From sequence record PV654397.1: DNA of 64,000 bases; one strand, written 5' to 3'. The notes beneath the pieces are model-generated. The model had not been told where the DNA came from. It worked only from the letters and a program-made list of their open reading frames with translations, and searched no databases. Origin of the DNA: Escherichia phage WPEC5. The stretch's first letter is position 1. Every line of letters starts with the position of its first letter. Below are positions 43,741-53,380 of this stretch, piece by piece. The position numbers were made by a program, and so were the translations under genes.

Positions 43741-43828
43741 GGATACACCTATGCACCCTGTGGGCTAGTTTTTGTCTATGCGTATATAATAGCAAAGGGA
43801 CTGACCGGAGTCAATCCCTTTTTTTATT
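43741..43828. repeat. Copy a of a ~100-bp intergenic element
   Basis: GCACCCTGTGGGCT...TATATAATAGCAAAGGGACTGACCGGAGTCAATCCC then T-run; near-identical to copies at 46.0, 49.3 and 53.3 kb. Confidence 0.6.
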
Positions 43829-43837
43829 CTTTTTTTG

Positions 43838-44038
43838 TTAGATGATTCTCCAATCATCAACGATCATGGTAAGATACCGAACCAGTGATTCGAGTGATTC
43901 GTGTTCTCGATAGTCTGCCGCTCCACCAGCGGTACAAGTACAGCCGATTAAGCCGTTTTGTAGTTCCTGGATCTTTACGTCGATCTGGTTGGCTTTAGCT
44001 TCTTTCAGTACTTCAACCAGGGCGATAGCGATAGACAT
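43838..44038 (-). CDS. Hypothetical small protein
   Basis: Minus ORF preceded by hairpin and promoter. Confidence 0.5.
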   Translation of the reverse strand: MSIAIALVEVLKEAKANQIDVKIQELQNGLIGCTCTAGGAADYREHESLESLVRYLTMIVDDWRII

Positions 44039-44128
44039 AATGTTTTACTCCAAACTATTGGCGGGAGAACTATTCCCCCGCTCTATGTAAAACATTATAC
44101 ATTACTGGTTAGTACTGTCAAATAGTTT

Positions 44129-44386
44129 TTATGAAATATCTTCGATGTAGTCGGCCCATTTCATTTTTTCAGTACTGTCAATGGCTACCGGATTATTTGG
44201 ATCAAACCATTCACCATCACCGCAATACATACCCACGGCTACGGTTTTATAGCCATCCTGGGCCGTACACCACGACATTGCACGATAGATATGGCCTTTA
44301 ACTGGTTGCAGTACTGGTAACGTTTTATGGTCTTCTACGTAGGCCATAGCTTGAGGATTTACCCGATATTGTGTGAACTGATCCAT
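44129..44386 (-). CDS. Hypothetical small protein
   Basis: Minus ORF. Confidence 0.5.
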   Translation of the reverse strand: MDQFTQYRVNPQAMAYVEDHKTLPVLQPVKGHIYRAMSWCTAQDGYKTVAVGMYCGDGEWFDPNNPVAIDSTEKMKWADYIEDIS

Positions 44387-44462
44387 TATGTTTCCCCTTG
44401 TAGTTAGTAAAGTTATTACATCAGTACTATCAAGCTATGTCAATAGTACTGAAATAAAACTT

Positions 44463-44687
44463 TTAGATTAGATTATTGAGGCCGTCAATGGTAGACTCAC
44501 TTTCTTCTTTCTCCCATTGTCGGTAGTACTTCCATGCTTCATGATAGGTGGCGATTAGTTCATCTTTTTGATCCTGGTTACATGCCAGTACTGAATCACG
44601 GTGAGCGGTGTTATAGATAGAATCGAATGATTTCTTCTCTTCTGCCAGGTTAGCTACTTCCCGCATCAGTTCATCAAAGTTAGCCAT
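44463..44687 (-). CDS. Hypothetical small protein
   Basis: Minus ORF preceded by a GGGGGAGGAtatcTCCCCC hairpin. Confidence 0.5.
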   Translation of the reverse strand: MANFDELMREVANLAEEKKSFDSIYNTAHRDSVLACNQDQKDELIATYHEAWKYYRQWEKEESESTIDGLNNLI

Positions 44688-44754
44688 TTTATTACTCCTT
44701 TTAGTGGGGGAGGATATCTCCCCCTATGCAAAACATTATACTTTGTTTTAGTTA

Positions 44755-45018
44755 TTATGCAAGTACTTTTTTCATATAAACATTAAATTCTACACCGCCG
44801 TAACCTTCCACGATGATATGTTTTGCGTTATCACGTTTGCACATAGTGAAACCGTTGTTGATATGTTCTGCATTTTCCAGGGCGACATCACCGATAGCGG
44901 CACATACGGCACTAATAACAGTATTCCGCAAAGTACTGGTATCATTGGCGGTCATAGTAGTTTGCAGTACTACGTTGTCGTATACGTGTGCATTGATAGT
45001 GATTTCGATAGTGTTCAT
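44755..45018 (-). CDS. Hypothetical small protein
   Basis: Start moved to internal Met (MNTIEIT); the track extension translates the hairpin and promoter. Confidence 0.5.
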   Translation of the reverse strand: MNTIEITINAHVYDNVVLQTTMTANDTSTLRNTVISAVCAAIGDVALENAEHINNGFTMCKRDNAKHIIVEGYGGVEFNVYMKKVLA

Positions 45019-45105
45019 GGTGTATCTCCTGGACTTGAGGGGAAACCATTTCCCCCTCTCGATATAAAACATTATACGTTAATCTAACTACAATGCAAGT
45101 ACTTT

Positions 45106-45297
45106 TTAAATTTTATTTCCGATATAGTCCGGTCTATTCTTTTCGGTCATACGCTTTGCTAATGTCTGCATATGGCTTATAGCGTTCAAGGTGTCTTCCT
45201 CCAGGGATGAATCAAGATAATCAGGATCATTCTTCACCTTGCAATGATTATGATATCGTAGTACTGCCAGTACTTTTTTAACTTCTTCTACTGTCAT
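45106..45297 (-). CDS. Hypothetical small protein
   Basis: Minus ORF. Confidence 0.45.
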   Translation of the reverse strand: MTVEEVKKVLAVLRYHNHCKVKNDPDYLDSSLEEDTLNAISHMQTLAKRMTEKNRPDYIGNKI

Positions 45298-45566
45298 AAT
45301 AAGTACCCCACTTCGTTAGCTTTCAGGTTAGTATCAATCATCAGTGGATTTTTGTAGTTCACAAAACGATTAGTTTTTTCGATAGCAAATCCCATATAAT
45401 CCAGCTTACTAACAGTACATTCATTCTTAAAAACTTCTTTCGCTGCATCGATTGCTGATTGCATGGATAACCGACCATCTAAATTAATGTTTCCAAATGA
45501 TCCACCAGCAGAAGTAGGATTACCGTTCATATCTTTAATGATCATAGTAGCGGAGTAGCTAGACAT
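45294..45566 (-). CDS. Hypothetical small protein
   Basis: Minus ORF preceded by a GGGGAGAActaTTCTCCCC hairpin. Confidence 0.5.
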   Translation of the reverse strand: MSSYSATMIIKDMNGNPTSAGGSFGNINLDGRLSMQSAIDAAKEVFKNECTVSKLDYMGFAIEKTNRFVNYKNPLMIDTNLKANEVGYLL

Positions 45567-45650
45567 AATTTTGTTTCCTTTTAGTATCGGGGAGAACTAT
45601 TCTCCCCTTGATGTAAACTATTATACAGTACTGGTATACTTTGTCAATAC

Positions 45651-51131: not shown

Positions 51132-51389
51132 TTATCTCATAGATCTATGCCAACAATTACGCGGATCTCTTTTAAAAGTACTATCATGATCCTCCTGGCA
51201 AGTAATACAATACATGCACCCTATAACGGCCTGGCGTCGATTCTCAGGGATTTTATCGCCGCAGTCGAGGCAATGTACTAGTGATTCTCTTTGTGCGTTA
51301 ATTTGCTTTCTAGCGTGGTTAACGGCTGCCTGAATCACTGCATGAATCTCGTCTTGTTCGGCCCCGTCTTTCGCGTATCCTACTGCCAT
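51132..51389 (-). CDS. TraR/DksA-family C4 zinc-finger protein
   Basis: CLDCGDKIPENRRQAVIGCMYCITCQ matches the TraR/DksA CxxC...CxxC finger. Confidence 0.6.
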   Translation of the reverse strand: MAVGYAKDGAEQDEIHAVIQAAVNHARKQINAQRESLVHCLDCGDKIPENRRQAVIGCMYCITCQEDHDSTFKRDPRNCWHRSMR

Positions 51390-51719
51390 TATTTTAACCT
51401 CATTATAAAAATACTATAGTACTGTAATGCTACAATAATACTACTAGTGCTAATCTTATTCAAACCACATGATACTACATATCCCCCAGCATTACCACGG
51501 ATAGTAACGCCTTCGTATTGTCTATATAAATTCAACTGCGTTTATTGCCTTTGATCAAGAATTGATCAGAATTATACGCCTTATGCTAAATTGATCCAGT
51601 ACTTTTTTTGATCATTTATTGATCGATATTATATAGTTACATTTGTGCACCCTATGGGTTAGTGACGTTCTCGTCTTGATGTAAGTATTATGCCAGTACT
51701 GGAGGATATTGTCAATAGA

Positions 51720-51923
51720 TTATTTTAATTTTTTTCTGTCATTGATTAATGCTTTCAGTACTATACTAATAACTTGCAATGATTCATCAATGACAATGAA
51801 ATTATTCTCTTTCATTAGATGATAGTTACCATTGATTGTATATTCTAACGAGTACTGTTTACGTTTAATTTTTGATAATGTTTCTATTTGTTTTTGTACT
51901 GATTTCATGCTAATCATTGTCAA
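51720..51923 (-). CDS. Hypothetical small protein
   Basis: Minus ORF. Confidence 0.45.
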   Translation of the reverse strand: MTMISMKSVQKQIETLSKIKRKQYSLEYTINGNYHLMKENNFIVIDESLQVISIVLKALINDRKKLK

Positions 51924-52022
51924 ACGTCCTGTAACGCATTCTAACGAGATAAACGGTTTAGTACTGGCATTGTATAGGGTAAATGATTAAAGCCCACCAG
52001 CGTTAACCAGTGGGCTATAATA

Positions 52023-52166
52023 TTACATCTTGCGGATAATCTTAACAGTATCTTTCACCGATTTACCGTTTTGCTGACATTGCTCGATCATCGCGTATTG
52101 TTCTGCGGTCAGATCCTCGCCAGTTTTTGCCAGTACTGCGTCGATGAATGAATCCAGTGCGATCAT
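52023..52166 (-). CDS. Small ORF (about 47 aa)
   Basis: Fills a cassette between promoter-hairpin units; below the track cutoff. Confidence 0.3.
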   Translation of the reverse strand: MIALDSFIDAVLAKTGEDLTAEQYAMIEQCQQNGKSVKDTVKIIRKM

Positions 52167-52256
52167 TTTGTTTCTCTCTTAGGTTAAGTTAACTACTGTT
52201 TATAAAACTTATTATACAGTACTATCAAACGTTGTCAATAGTACTGGTAATATATT

Positions 52257-52434
52257 TTAGCGGTAGTCGTCGTATGCTTTATTCACCTGGCGAATATAAC
52301 TTTCAAAGGCTTCGTCTACCGTTTCATACTCCCGAACATAATCACCATATGAAACTACATACATACCTTTTTGATCTTCAAACGTCATGATGATAGAATC
52401 CAGACCAACGATTTCAGTTTTTGCGATGATAGCC
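52257..52434 (-). CDS. Small ORF (about 58 aa)
   Basis: Fills a cassette; below the track cutoff. Confidence 0.35.
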
Positions 52435-52518
52435 ATTTTTAATTCCTTAATAGTGTAGTTGATAAAAGTTATTATGTCAGTACTATCAAACTATGTCAAT
52501 AGTACTGTGATAATATTT

Positions 52519-52731
52519 TTAGTTAATGATAGTCAGTGTAAAATTGTAATCACCTGCCTGGTATAGTACTTTGTCGCCGAACGTTCCAACACGTTTCATA
52601 TTGCAATAGATACCCATAACACTTTTTACATCTTTGATATTCCGAACGCCAGTAATATCCTTGTTTAAATGATCGTGATCAGAAAATAAAACTTGTTTTG
52701 CATTTTTCAGTACAGTGCAGATATTAGCCAT
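52519..52731 (-). CDS. Hypothetical small protein
   Basis: Minus ORF preceded by a hairpin. Confidence 0.5.
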   Translation of the reverse strand: MANICTVLKNAKQVLFSDHDHLNKDITGVRNIKDVKSVMGIYCNMKRVGTFGDKVLYQAGDYNFTLTIIN

Positions 52732-52826
52732 TTTGTTTTCTCTCTGTTAGTGGGGAGAATCATTTTCTCCCCTTGATGTAACTTATTATACAGTACTATA
52801 ATCTATTGTCAAACTATTTTTTTATA

Positions 52827-53168
52827 TTATTCGAAATCTTCTGGACCGGACTGATAATCATCTTCACCGTATGCACTTTCTAACCGCTCGCCAGTGTGAT
52901 CATCAGTTAGTGAGTCATCCTCATAGTTCACGTCTACGCCAGTGATGTAAAACTGGCTATCGTCTGGATCATTGAAATTAATTTTTTGGATGTTTACAAT
53001 AACTGTATTGATACCCAGGACACCGCCATCAGCCGTTACAAAGTACTGATAGTTTTCGCAACCGCCTGAATTGAAACCGTAATTAATTTCGGCCCGACCA
53101 TCATTTAAACGCAGTGCCTGAGCGATGATTTCATTTTCAAAGTTAGATTGAGCAATTGAGATAGTCAT
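52827..53168 (-). CDS. Hypothetical protein (113 aa)
   Basis: Minus ORF. Confidence 0.5.
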   Translation of the reverse strand: MTISIAQSNFENEIIAQALRLNDGRAEINYGFNSGGCENYQYFVTADGGVLGINTVIVNIQKINFNDPDDSQFYITGVDVNYEDDSLTDDHTGERLESAYGEDDYQSGPEDFE

Positions 53169-53282
53169 GATTCGTTTCCTTATTACCAGGGGAAACCGTT
53201 TCCCCTTTCGATGTAAAACATTATACGCTTATTGAGATAGTTTGCAAGTACTTTTTAAAAATAGTTTTCAGTACTCAAACAT

Positions 53283-53380
53283 TATATAATAGATACACTT
53301 ATGCACCCTGTGGGCTAGTGAGCTATCTCTCAATGAATATATAATAGCAAAATGGCTGACCGGAGTCAACCACTTTTTTC
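53283..53380. repeat. Copy d of the ~100-bp intergenic element
   Basis: GCACCCTGTGGGCT...TATATAATAGCAAAATGGCTGACCGGAGTCAACCAC then T-run. Confidence 0.55.

Follow-up and report, generated by a model that had tools for sequence, protein, structure and literature searches.

A predicted terminator-embedded promoter and a putative structured leader RNA in the terminal repeat of an Asteriusvirus coliphage

This report concerns a 64,000-nucleotide (nt) stretch of Escherichia phage WPEC5 (sequence record PV654397.1), called the window below, and more precisely an intergenic element of about 90 nt that it carries in four copies (43741-43828, 45996-46088, 49279-49366 and 53291-53383, numbered 1 to 4). 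Our main finding is that each copy probably combines two modules read on the minus strand, which is the coding strand of the region: a predicted intrinsic terminator whose hairpin overlaps a promoter, and a short leader that may act as RNA at the start of the new transcript. The coordinates of all parts are collected in Table 1.

The window belongs to a coliphage of the genus Asteriusvirus (PBECO4/121Q group), whose relatives are jumbo myoviruses of about 350 kb; between 43 and 50 kb it is 94 to 98% identical to Escherichia phages Ecwhy_1, WPEC3, UE-S1, slurp01, G17, phAPEC6 and others. When a 101-nt version of the element was searched for, the Asteriusvirus records listed offered four places each (about 30 genomes; EJP2 has three, and a few records show one more at a laxer E-value cutoff), and records of about 366 to 384 kb offered eight. 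In one of the eight-place records, vB_Ec-M-J, the matched region is annotated 'Direct Terminal Repeats 1-21525', and position 1 of the WPEC3 and G17 records corresponds to about 42.34 kb in the window. Judging by these records, the four copies thus sit within a direct terminal repeat of about 21.5 kb, from about 42.3 to 63.8 kb in the window, the far boundary being a predicted one. From 1 to 43 kb, all open reading frames (ORFs) of at least 110 amino acids (aa) are on the minus strand, except two that overlap minus-strand ORFs, and from 40 to 56 kb the ORFs are small, tightly packed and again on the minus strand. The terminal repeat is dense in near-consensus sigma-70 promoters of the minus strand, mostly composed of TTGCAA or TTGACA, a 16-nt spacer and TATAAT. 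They form an ordinary early-promoter family of at least 26 minus-strand copies at 42.5-64 kb (repeat families D1-D7), separate from the four copies studied here, and each of its members is followed by ACATC and by a conserved hairpin of the 5' untranslated region, GGGGAGAA..UUCUCCCC, upstream of the Shine-Dalgarno (SD) sequence.

Within the element, the 22-mer GGGACTGACCGGAGTCAATCCC occurs exactly three times (at 43797, 46057 and 49335) versus never in 100 shuffled sequences, and its counterpart in copy 4, at 53.35 kb, has diverged to AATGGCTGACCGGAGTCAACCAC. A repeat search grouped the four copies into one family, D14 (43742-43834, 46002-46094, 49280-49372 and 53297-53389), with 60 to 100% ungapped identity, and their gapped alignment covers about 90 to 100 nt. 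A preliminary description of this DNA, made by a reader of the letters, had reported four copies and plus-strand runs of five to seven T, and both statements are borne out (T7, T6, T5 and T6 in copies 1 to 4). Its details of sequence largely agree too: GCACCCTGTGGGCT is exact in copies 1, 3 and 4 and reads GCACCCTATGGGTC in copy 2, and AGCCCACAGGGTGC is present as stated, copies 2 and 4 varying slightly. One small correction is that copy 1 has GGATACAC and not ATAGATACAC. Likewise, the count of four is right for whole elements, but the downstream half has six more copies in the window.

In all four copies, the RNA of the minus strand can form a 12-bp stem (z of about -5.6) that starts 2 to 16 nt past the stop codon of a minus-strand ORF. 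The calculated energy of this hairpin is -19.9, -19.5 and -16.9 kcal/mol in copies 1, 2 and 4, versus -13.3, -13.4 and -6.4 kcal/mol for the plus strand, and the stem sequence of copy 3 is that of copies 1 and 2. The gap arises because U-G wobbles of the minus strand become C-A mismatches on the other one; the plus-strand hairpin indeed carries a C-A mismatch (-13.3 kcal/mol), and is followed by U5-7. Copy 4 differs from copies 1 to 3 by two compensatory double changes plus wobble changes, in such a way that all 12 pairs are kept on the minus strand only; its plus-strand hairpin has a z of -1.0, and 35 of 200 shuffled sequences fold equally well. The same bias extends to relatives. Six phages (the window, RaK2, GAP32, CBB, Munch and Hallingskeid) together provided 29 hairpin-promoters, every one of which folds more stably on the coding strand (mean -15.8 versus -9.6 kcal/mol, Wilcoxon p = 2.5e-6), and the outer stem varies (GGGA, GGGG, GTAC, GTGG, AAGG) with matching changes in the partner arm. 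By a count on the listed hairpins, the loop is UUCG, UCCG or UACG in 18 of the 29. UNCG tetraloops stabilize RNA on the strand that carries them and not on the other, and those of the four copies are present on the coding strand only. In GenBank, homologous hairpins are annotated as coding-strand terminators in UE-S1, G17 and Munch, and several as stem-loops or terminators in GAP32. Finally, ORF and promoter scans of the window found neither a plus-strand gene nor a strong plus-strand promoter aimed into 43-54 kb. It is on these grounds (energies, compensatory changes, UNCG loops, position after stop codons, annotations and lack of plus-strand input) that we assign the hairpin to the coding strand, as a predicted terminator for the upstream minus-strand gene; we consider this assignment, taken jointly with the two-module anatomy, probable.

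The preliminary description had favored the other strand: the hairpin and its T5-7 run would mainly be a terminator of plus-strand antisense transcripts, the same DNA would be a minus-strand promoter, and the repeat would act as a bidirectional insulator of the gene array. Such a design is conceivable for copies 1 to 3, where the plus-strand hairpin reaches -13 kcal/mol before U5-7; moreover, the coding-strand A-tract that gives rise to the T-run recurs in many homologs, and plus-strand promoters exist elsewhere in the repeat, at 58-63 kb. However, these are leader promoters that fire away from 43-54 kb, a section toward which no strong plus-strand promoter was seen to point and which adjoins the almost exclusively minus-strand ORFs of 1-43 kb. 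Several homologs have no A-run, for example TACAAGGGG and ATCCAGGGG, and the case of copy 4, no better than shuffles on the plus strand and maintained by compensatory changes on the minus strand, as well as the 29 comparisons in favor of the coding strand and its exclusive UNCG loops, run counter to a primary antisense function. We therefore abandon that claim, and regard the insulator as unlikely. The element does resemble bidirectional intrinsic terminators in its A-run, GC-containing stem and T-run, which are in principle readable from both sides; it differs from them in that wobbles, UNCG loops and compensatory changes favor one strand, one of the four copies not being credible on the other. 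A secondary, bidirectional action of copies 1 to 3 may exist alongside the coding-strand one.

The predicted minus-strand promoter embedded in the hairpin, by contrast, agrees with the preliminary description. All four copies read TTGACT, 17 nt and TATTAT, with TG one base upstream of the -10 (an extended -10), which amounts to 10 of 12 consensus positions plus the TG motif. The 5' arm of the stem contains the -35, while the 3' arm and the U-rich tail together make up the 17-nt spacer, and TTGAC is invariant in the 29 homologous hairpin-promoters. Nine of the 10 leader-bearing promoters of the window have a conserved CAT whose A falls seven bases past the -10, and this A is the predicted +1. 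A scan of the complete TH47 genome (352 kb) revealed further hairpin-promoters at 122.9-138.5 kb; four passed a structural scan, and a less strict sequence pattern matched up to six. They have the form AGGGTTGAC-TTCG-GTCAGCCC-TTTTTGC-TATAAT and run straight into SD and ATG, without any leader. Because of these leaderless relatives, the overlap appears to be a general device of the lineage and an independent module. Since leaders are also found behind plain promoters, in both orientations, the terminator/promoter overlap and the leader are two separable modules.

This second module, to which the AGCCCACAGGGTGC part of the element belongs, is independent and widely conserved, a point that the preliminary description had missed. 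A search with the AGCCCACAGGGTGC part brought the leaders of the window to 10, namely the four hairpin copies and six others (51.66 and 60.88 kb on the minus strand; 58.41, 60.81, 62.70 and 62.92 kb on the plus strand), each lying 6 to 8 nt past the -10 of an ordinary promoter devoid of hairpin. In RaK2, GAP32, CBB, Munch and Hallingskeid, a profile search of the terminal-repeat regions yielded about 40 more, and still others were present in Yersinia phage fHe-Yen9-04 and Serratia phage BF, the motif being conserved across at least seven phage lineages. There are about 10 leaders per terminal-repeat region in the two genomes fully examined, that is, the window and TH47, and several per sampled region in the other phages. 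In TH47, all 10 leaders of the whole genome fall within 16 kb (88.9-104.8 kb) homologous to the terminal-repeat region of the window. In the IMG/VR database, the exact leader pattern matched only jumbo-phage contigs of 345 to 378 kb, and in 185,579 prokaryotic genomes it gave six matches in unrelated taxa, versus a rough chance estimate of about four, and none in Enterobacterales.

The leader is 40 to 45 nt long and comprises a variable 5' hairpin (P1), a mini-hairpin RCCC-AYN-GGGUGC (the box) and a GUAUCU strand. P1 is found in 40 of 51 copies, where it has 3 to 5 bp, begins around +2 to +10 of the predicted transcript and leaves 2 to 4 nt between its end and the box; the 11 copies that lack it retain only a AGAAACAA-like stretch. 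Its arms form 14 distinct, fully complementary pairs at a fixed place, and its loops, 6 to 8 nt long, are rich in purines (AGAUAA, AGAACAA, GCGAAA and GAGAAA among them). Used without guidance, RNAalifold predicted P1 and the CCC/GGG hairpin of the box, with compensatory changes in all four P1 pairs. Over 80 distinct leaders, the loop of the box differs both in its bases and in its size (3 or 4 nt: ACA, AUA, ACC, UAGA, CAGA, UCAA) around a fixed CCC/GGG stem, one-base insertions being located exactly between CCC and GGG, and one leader copy has a compensatory CCU/AGG change in this stem. An alternative pairing, P2, associates GGGUGC with the GUAUCU lying six bases downstream. In the same 80 leaders, five of the six P2 pairs are kept in 88 to 100% of cases, and nearly all substitutions in the 3' strand are transitions that leave G-U, G-C, U-A or U-G pairs on the transcribed strand; three double changes are seen as well. 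We rejected P2 as the only helix, given the RNAalifold preference for P1 plus the box hairpin and the backing that loop-length variants and the CCU/AGG change provide for the latter; the box hairpin and P2 are both retained as alternatives. The distance between the -10 and the box ranges from 20 to 28 nt, and as such variable spacing would be better tolerated by an RNA than by a DNA site contacting the polymerase, it argues for a leader that acts as RNA. The features of P1, box and P2 similarly favor an RNA-level element over a site in duplex DNA.

A DNA site would still account for part of these data. The box could be bound by a DNA-binding protein of the phage or host or by a nickase, or could seed an R-loop or a primer at an origin in the terminal repeat, its RNA being incidental. 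Consistent with this are the near-invariance of the box, its presence in both orientations and its confinement to a 16-kb stretch matching the terminal repeat; the RNA is also G-rich just past a strong promoter, with AT-rich DNA beyond it, five clustered GATC sites lie past the 51.66-kb copy, and Chi sites are close by. We find it very unlikely, however, in view of the insertions placed exactly between CCC and GGG, the compensatory CCU/AGG copy, the co-variation of P1, the P2 substitutions that keep pairing on the transcribed strand only, and the constant link of the element to a promoter at its +1 in spite of the variable spacing to the -10.

Other attempts to place the leader among known elements gave negative results. 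Rfam returned no match at gathering score over the whole window, and at E-values up to 5, in two sub-regions, only unrelated chance matches outside the elements. Resemblances noted by eye to preQ1, CsrA, Hfq (ARN), CRISPR-repeat and RNase P RNA motifs were discarded, none being consistent across copies, and the same was true of small ORFs within the leader. Antisense targets were rejected as well: among 7- to 8-mers of the window complementary to the box, coding-strand RNA offers only a few scattered 7-mers and one 8-mer, and the plus-strand matches to the box complement are mostly the complements of leader copies themselves. In the literature searched on RaK2-like, Asteriusvirus and CBB phages, we found only generic counts of RpoD-like promoters and terminators, and not the element.

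The surroundings of the leaders depend on their orientation. Downstream of sense-oriented leaders, the next gene's own promoter, where found, is mostly 78 to 113 nt away (93 to 112 nt for the four copies), and no credible terminator was found in between, the sole scan match, in copy 2, falling on that promoter. The idea that the four copies are stand-alone small-RNA genes was rejected on this account. Reversed leaders point at the terminator of the upstream gene. About six of them in other phages, and the unit at 58352-58494 in the window, have their own promoter and a terminator at +72 to +104, with no ORF between, and about half of the reversed copies should, on these predictions, give RNAs of roughly 75 to 105 nt, for example from 58387 to about 58490. 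Convergent pairs recur, at 60762-60835 (+) and 60857-60934 (-) in the window and in similar form in GAP32 and CBB. From leader orientation, the placement of terminators and next promoters, and these convergent pairs, it seems that the promoter-leader unit, whichever way it faces, is placed between a terminator and the promoter that comes next, and that it behaves like a self-contained small transcription unit and unlike a promoter serving the gene downstream. Free-standing HNH endonuclease genes adjoin hairpin-promoter/leader cassettes in Munch (11658-12273, the cassette being just upstream of the gene) and in Hallingskeid (14567-15095, just downstream).

Another candidate role is processive antitermination. 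The leader would then be a cis-acting signal comparable to lambda nut or HK022 put, allowing polymerases that start at leader promoters to bypass downstream hairpin terminators at which those from ordinary promoters would stop. The likeness to nut and put lies in a promoter-proximal RNA made of small hairpins, one of them with a purine-rich loop; the leader is always at the extreme 5' end of the transcript, and the P1 loops GAGAAA, GCGAAA and AGAUAA of its two-hairpin layout resemble boxB loops. Terminators do follow reversed copies at +72 to +104, and the strong terminator at 47556-47574 precedes a gene with no promoter in the intervening 20 nt. We nonetheless hold this explanation to be quite unlikely. 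No boxA-like sequence (CGCUCUUUA-like consensus) exists in the leader, P1 is dispensable as it is missing in 11 of 51 copies, the P1 loops of 6 to 8 nt do not match the GNRA-like pentaloop of boxB, the hairpins are far smaller than those of put, and no N- or Q-like factor was identified. In addition, unlike nut and put, the leader is found on either strand, and some copies point at a terminator beyond which there is no gene; read-through of reversed copies would yield antisense RNA to early genes. The minus-strand terminator at 47556-47574 consists of GGCGGGAUCAGUUCCCGCC followed by U6, and only some 20 nt separate it from the start codon of ORF 47281-47535 downstream; as no promoter was seen in these 20 nt, expression of this ORF seems to require read-through or internal promoters.

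The closest known kind of element is the promoter-early stem-loop (PeSL) cassette described in T4-like phages (Arbiol 2010, PMC2839356; Comeau 2014, PMC4122927). Like the element, PeSLs are short composite terminator/promoters with a stem-loop of the A3-4G3-loop-C3T3-4 type and a strong sigma-70-like early promoter, repeated between small non-essential early genes. PeSLs also lie beside indels between close relatives; in the window, such a position is seen for promoter cassettes as a class and, among the four copies, for the edge of copy 1. PeSLs differ in that their stem-loop is just upstream of the promoter, whereas the stem of the element contains the -35 and its 3' arm belongs to the spacer, and in that they finish with the SD and start codon of the gene that follows, whereas the four copies go on to a leader and a second promoter. 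The leaderless TH47 relatives resemble PeSLs in ending with SD and ATG. The setting is also different, RaK2-like jumbo phages and their terminal repeat as opposed to the hyperplastic regions of T4. The overlap is thus a variation on PeSL-type composite terminator/promoters, and the potentially new part may be the leader RNA.

As with PeSLs, the repeats might chiefly be portable homology for the shuffling of small early genes, their regulatory activity serving to keep a shuffled gene expressed; the preliminary description had also proposed recombination sites. Compared with TH47, ECO103 4-12-1 and UE-S1, the window shows many small indels, with 36 distinct junctions. Promoter cassettes, which cover 16.7% of the region, contain 18 of them, three times the expectation (p = 4e-6), and several more are at cassette edges. 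Some junctions overlap, such as 45056-45111 with 45909-45964, a sign that repeated promoters have exchanged sequence internally. An indel junction relative to TH47 lies at the upstream edge of copy 1 (43834), and the junction at 51719 coincides with the promoter of the 51.7-kb leader copy; the same pattern is described for PeSL (PMC4122927). However, most junctions are in the 26-copy ordinary promoter family, copies 2 to 4 are not junctions in any of the three comparisons, and the four positions are kept in about 30 genomes. In these three comparisons, the proposal of recombination sites finds support for promoter cassettes as a class and, among the four copies, at the edge of copy 1. In addition, conservation of the box across several phage genera and co-variation of the stem point to selection on function and not only to homology. 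We consider it doubtful that shuffling is the main role of the repeats; a role in recombination is compatible with the two-module cassette, without replacing it. The segment at 51401-51718 is a non-coding indel of about 320 bp (promoter, leader and about 250 nt) present in the window, TH47 and 121Q, and absent from UE-S1 and ECO103 4-12-1. It includes five GATC sites within 70 nt (51553-51624), versus 2.25 per kb in the window.

Our preferred explanation for the element is, then, a two-module early-transcription cassette read on the coding strand of the terminal repeat. In the first module, the A-tract, the 12-bp UNCG stem and the U-rich tail would form the intrinsic terminator of the upstream small gene, and some 46 nt would suffice to end the incoming transcript and then start a new one by host RNA polymerase. 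The second module would be the first 40 to 45 nt of this new transcript, with optional P1, mini-hairpin and GUAUCU, after which the transcript would enter the ordinary early promoter of the next gene. Read directly from the sequence are the anatomy, the strand bias of the hairpin, the co-variation and the separability of the two modules; actual termination and initiation at the element, and the action of the leader as RNA, are what we infer from this arrangement.

Several points weigh against this explanation. Termination, initiation and the +1 are predictions, and the second promoter, 93 to 112 nt upstream of each gene's own promoter, has no explanation. The minus-strand tail, UUUGCUAUUAU, is rich in U without being a continuous run, and three U at its start can pair with the A-run as well, which may make termination partial; the cleaner run, T5-7, is that of the plus strand. 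As the box is near-invariant, co-variation tests have little power there, and shuffle controls on the box and P2 were uninformative. P1 was identified by folding, so that its complementarity is partly built in, and the two pairings proposed for GGG, in the box hairpin and in P2, are mutually exclusive. Lastly, no partner or target of the leader was found in the complement search of the window or in the pattern scan of prokaryotic genomes.

What the leader would do can be framed in two ways. The reading that we prefer, with low confidence, is a protected 5' end with a protein-recognition motif, of which many copies would be made early in infection, in the form of a leader or, from the reversed copies, of a free RNA some 100 nt long. 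Another tentative view is that it represents an undescribed structured RNA family of RaK2-like jumbo phages, transcribed from both strands by near-consensus promoters of the host type, a multi-copy RNA that would capture or redirect a conserved protein in the first minutes of infection. This protein might be a factor of the host that binds or degrades RNA, or even RNA polymerase, and the terminator-embedded promoter would be one of two ways to wire the RNA into the gene array. Highly expressed non-coding RNAs are known from the long direct terminal repeat of PA5oct, a related jumbo phage, and were reported to be without similarity elsewhere (PMC7318152). They share with the leader their non-coding nature, their location in the terminal repeat and the broad clade, a likeness by description only; at 236 to 451 nt, they are longer than the leader or the predicted RNA of about 100 nt. 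The promoters can also be compared with those of another terminal repeat. That of phage T5 is crowded with strong sigma-70 early promoters such as PN25 and with small early genes; near-consensus promoters for the host polymerase in a long terminal repeat, and the TTCAT start context, are common to both phages. T5 promoters are not known to lie within terminators or to have a structured leader in common, and they have no sequence relationship to those of the window.

RaK2/PBECO4-group jumbo phages are being isolated and proposed for phage therapy, and the literature that we searched holds little on their early program. The present analysis provides a testable map of the punctuation of the terminal-repeat array, in which a single 46-nt sequence would, with unusual economy, be both a stop and a start signal. 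If functional, the leader motif would be a new handle on host take-over or on the control of transcription, and the overlap design could be a compact insulator part for synthetic biology.

Table 1. Predicted parts of the four element copies and of the six related promoter-leader units in the window
Feature	Position	Strand	Remarks
Copy 1, putative terminator hairpin	43794-43821	-	AAAGGGAUUGAC-UCCG-GUCAGUCCCUUU, 12 bp, UNCG loop; 16 nt past stop codon of ORF 43838-44038
Copy 1, predicted promoter	43786-43814	-	-35 TTGACT 43809-43814, in 5' arm; 17-nt spacer; TG 43793-43794; -10 TATTAT 43786-43791
Copy 1, putative leader RNA	43741-43779	-	Short form without P1; predicted +1 at 43779 (A of CAT); box GCCCACAGGGUGC 43753-43765; pairing strand GUAUCC 43741-43746
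Copy 2, putative terminator hairpin	46054-46081	-	11 nt past stop codon of ORF 46093-46734
Copy 2, predicted promoter	46046-46074	-	TTGACT-17-TGc-TATTAT
Copy 2, putative leader RNA	45996-46039	-	5'-terminal P1 UGAG-AGAUAA-CUCA 46024-46037; box ACCCAUAGGGUGC 46008-46020; GUAUCU 45996-46001
Copy 3, putative terminator hairpin	49332-49359	-	11 nt past stop codon of 49-aa ORF 49371-49520
Copy 3, predicted promoter	49324-49352	-	TTGACT-17-TGc-TATTAT
Copy 3, putative leader RNA	49279-49317	-	Short form; box 49291-49303; Chi octamer 8 nt further downstream, 49264-49271
Copy 4, putative terminator hairpin	53349-53376	-	AAAGUGGUUGAC-UCCG-GUCAGCCAUUUU; 2 nt past stop codon of 47-aa ORF 53379-53522
Copy 4, predicted promoter	53341-53369	-	TTGACT-17-TGc-TATTAT
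Copy 4, putative leader RNA	53291-53334	-	P1 UGAG-AGAUAG-CUCA 53319-53332; box 53303-53315; GUAUCU 53291-53296
Related copy, promoter and leader	51635-51715	-	Promoter TTGACA-17-TGg-CATAAT, without hairpin
Related copy, promoter, leader and terminator	58352-58494	+	Promoter 58352-58380; leader 58387-58432; intrinsic terminator CGGGGAG-UUAUUAU-CUCCCCG 58461-58481 and U-rich tail
Related copy, promoter and leader	60762-60835	+	Short-form leader; non-coding strand
Related copy, promoter and leader	60857-60934	-	Convergent with 60762-60835 (+)
Related copy, promoter and leader	62644-62723	+	P1 CGC-GAGAAA-GCG; box CCCCAGAGGGUGC with 4-nt loop
Related copy, promoter and leader	62860-62939	+	P1 AGUC-GAGAAA-GACU

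Two short motifs are strongly over-represented in this DNA. The Chi octamer GCTGGTGG occurs 12 times in the window versus 0.33 expected, 11 of these copies being in the terminal-repeat part and nine on the minus strand; the whole TH47 genome has 23 versus about 1.8 expected, 10 of them in the repeat. One copy, at 43699 (-), is about 1.4 kb away from one boundary of the repeat, another, at 63416 (+), roughly 0.4 kb away from the predicted other boundary, and the segment 63404-63423 is an inverted Chi pair, CCACCAGC-TTGT-GCTGGTGG. By our reading of Chi polarity, the sites are oriented so as to act on RecBCD that enters at either physical end. Chi is also found within the leader-promoter spacers of Munch, RaK2 and two metagenome contigs. 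The palindrome CAGTACTG has 59 copies in the window versus 0.78 expected, and 203 in TH47 versus 3.6 expected. It often lies within the spacers of promoters (CAGTACTGTATAAT, CAGTACTGGCATAAT), ahead of -35 boxes and 10 to 15 nt past the leader, is found in coding DNA too, and could be a site for a regulator or a modification.

The section at 63100-63300, close to the predicted far boundary of the repeat, is poor in ORFs and dense in short direct repeats, TAGCCGT(C/T)TA, CCATCCAG and TTCCAGAC, which may be linked to the genome end or to packaging. Paralogous minus-strand genes of about 120 to 210 aa form long arrays at 17-41 kb and have conserved internal DNA motifs in common (families D8-D15 and D20), which points to a large tandemly duplicated gene family adjoining the terminal repeat.

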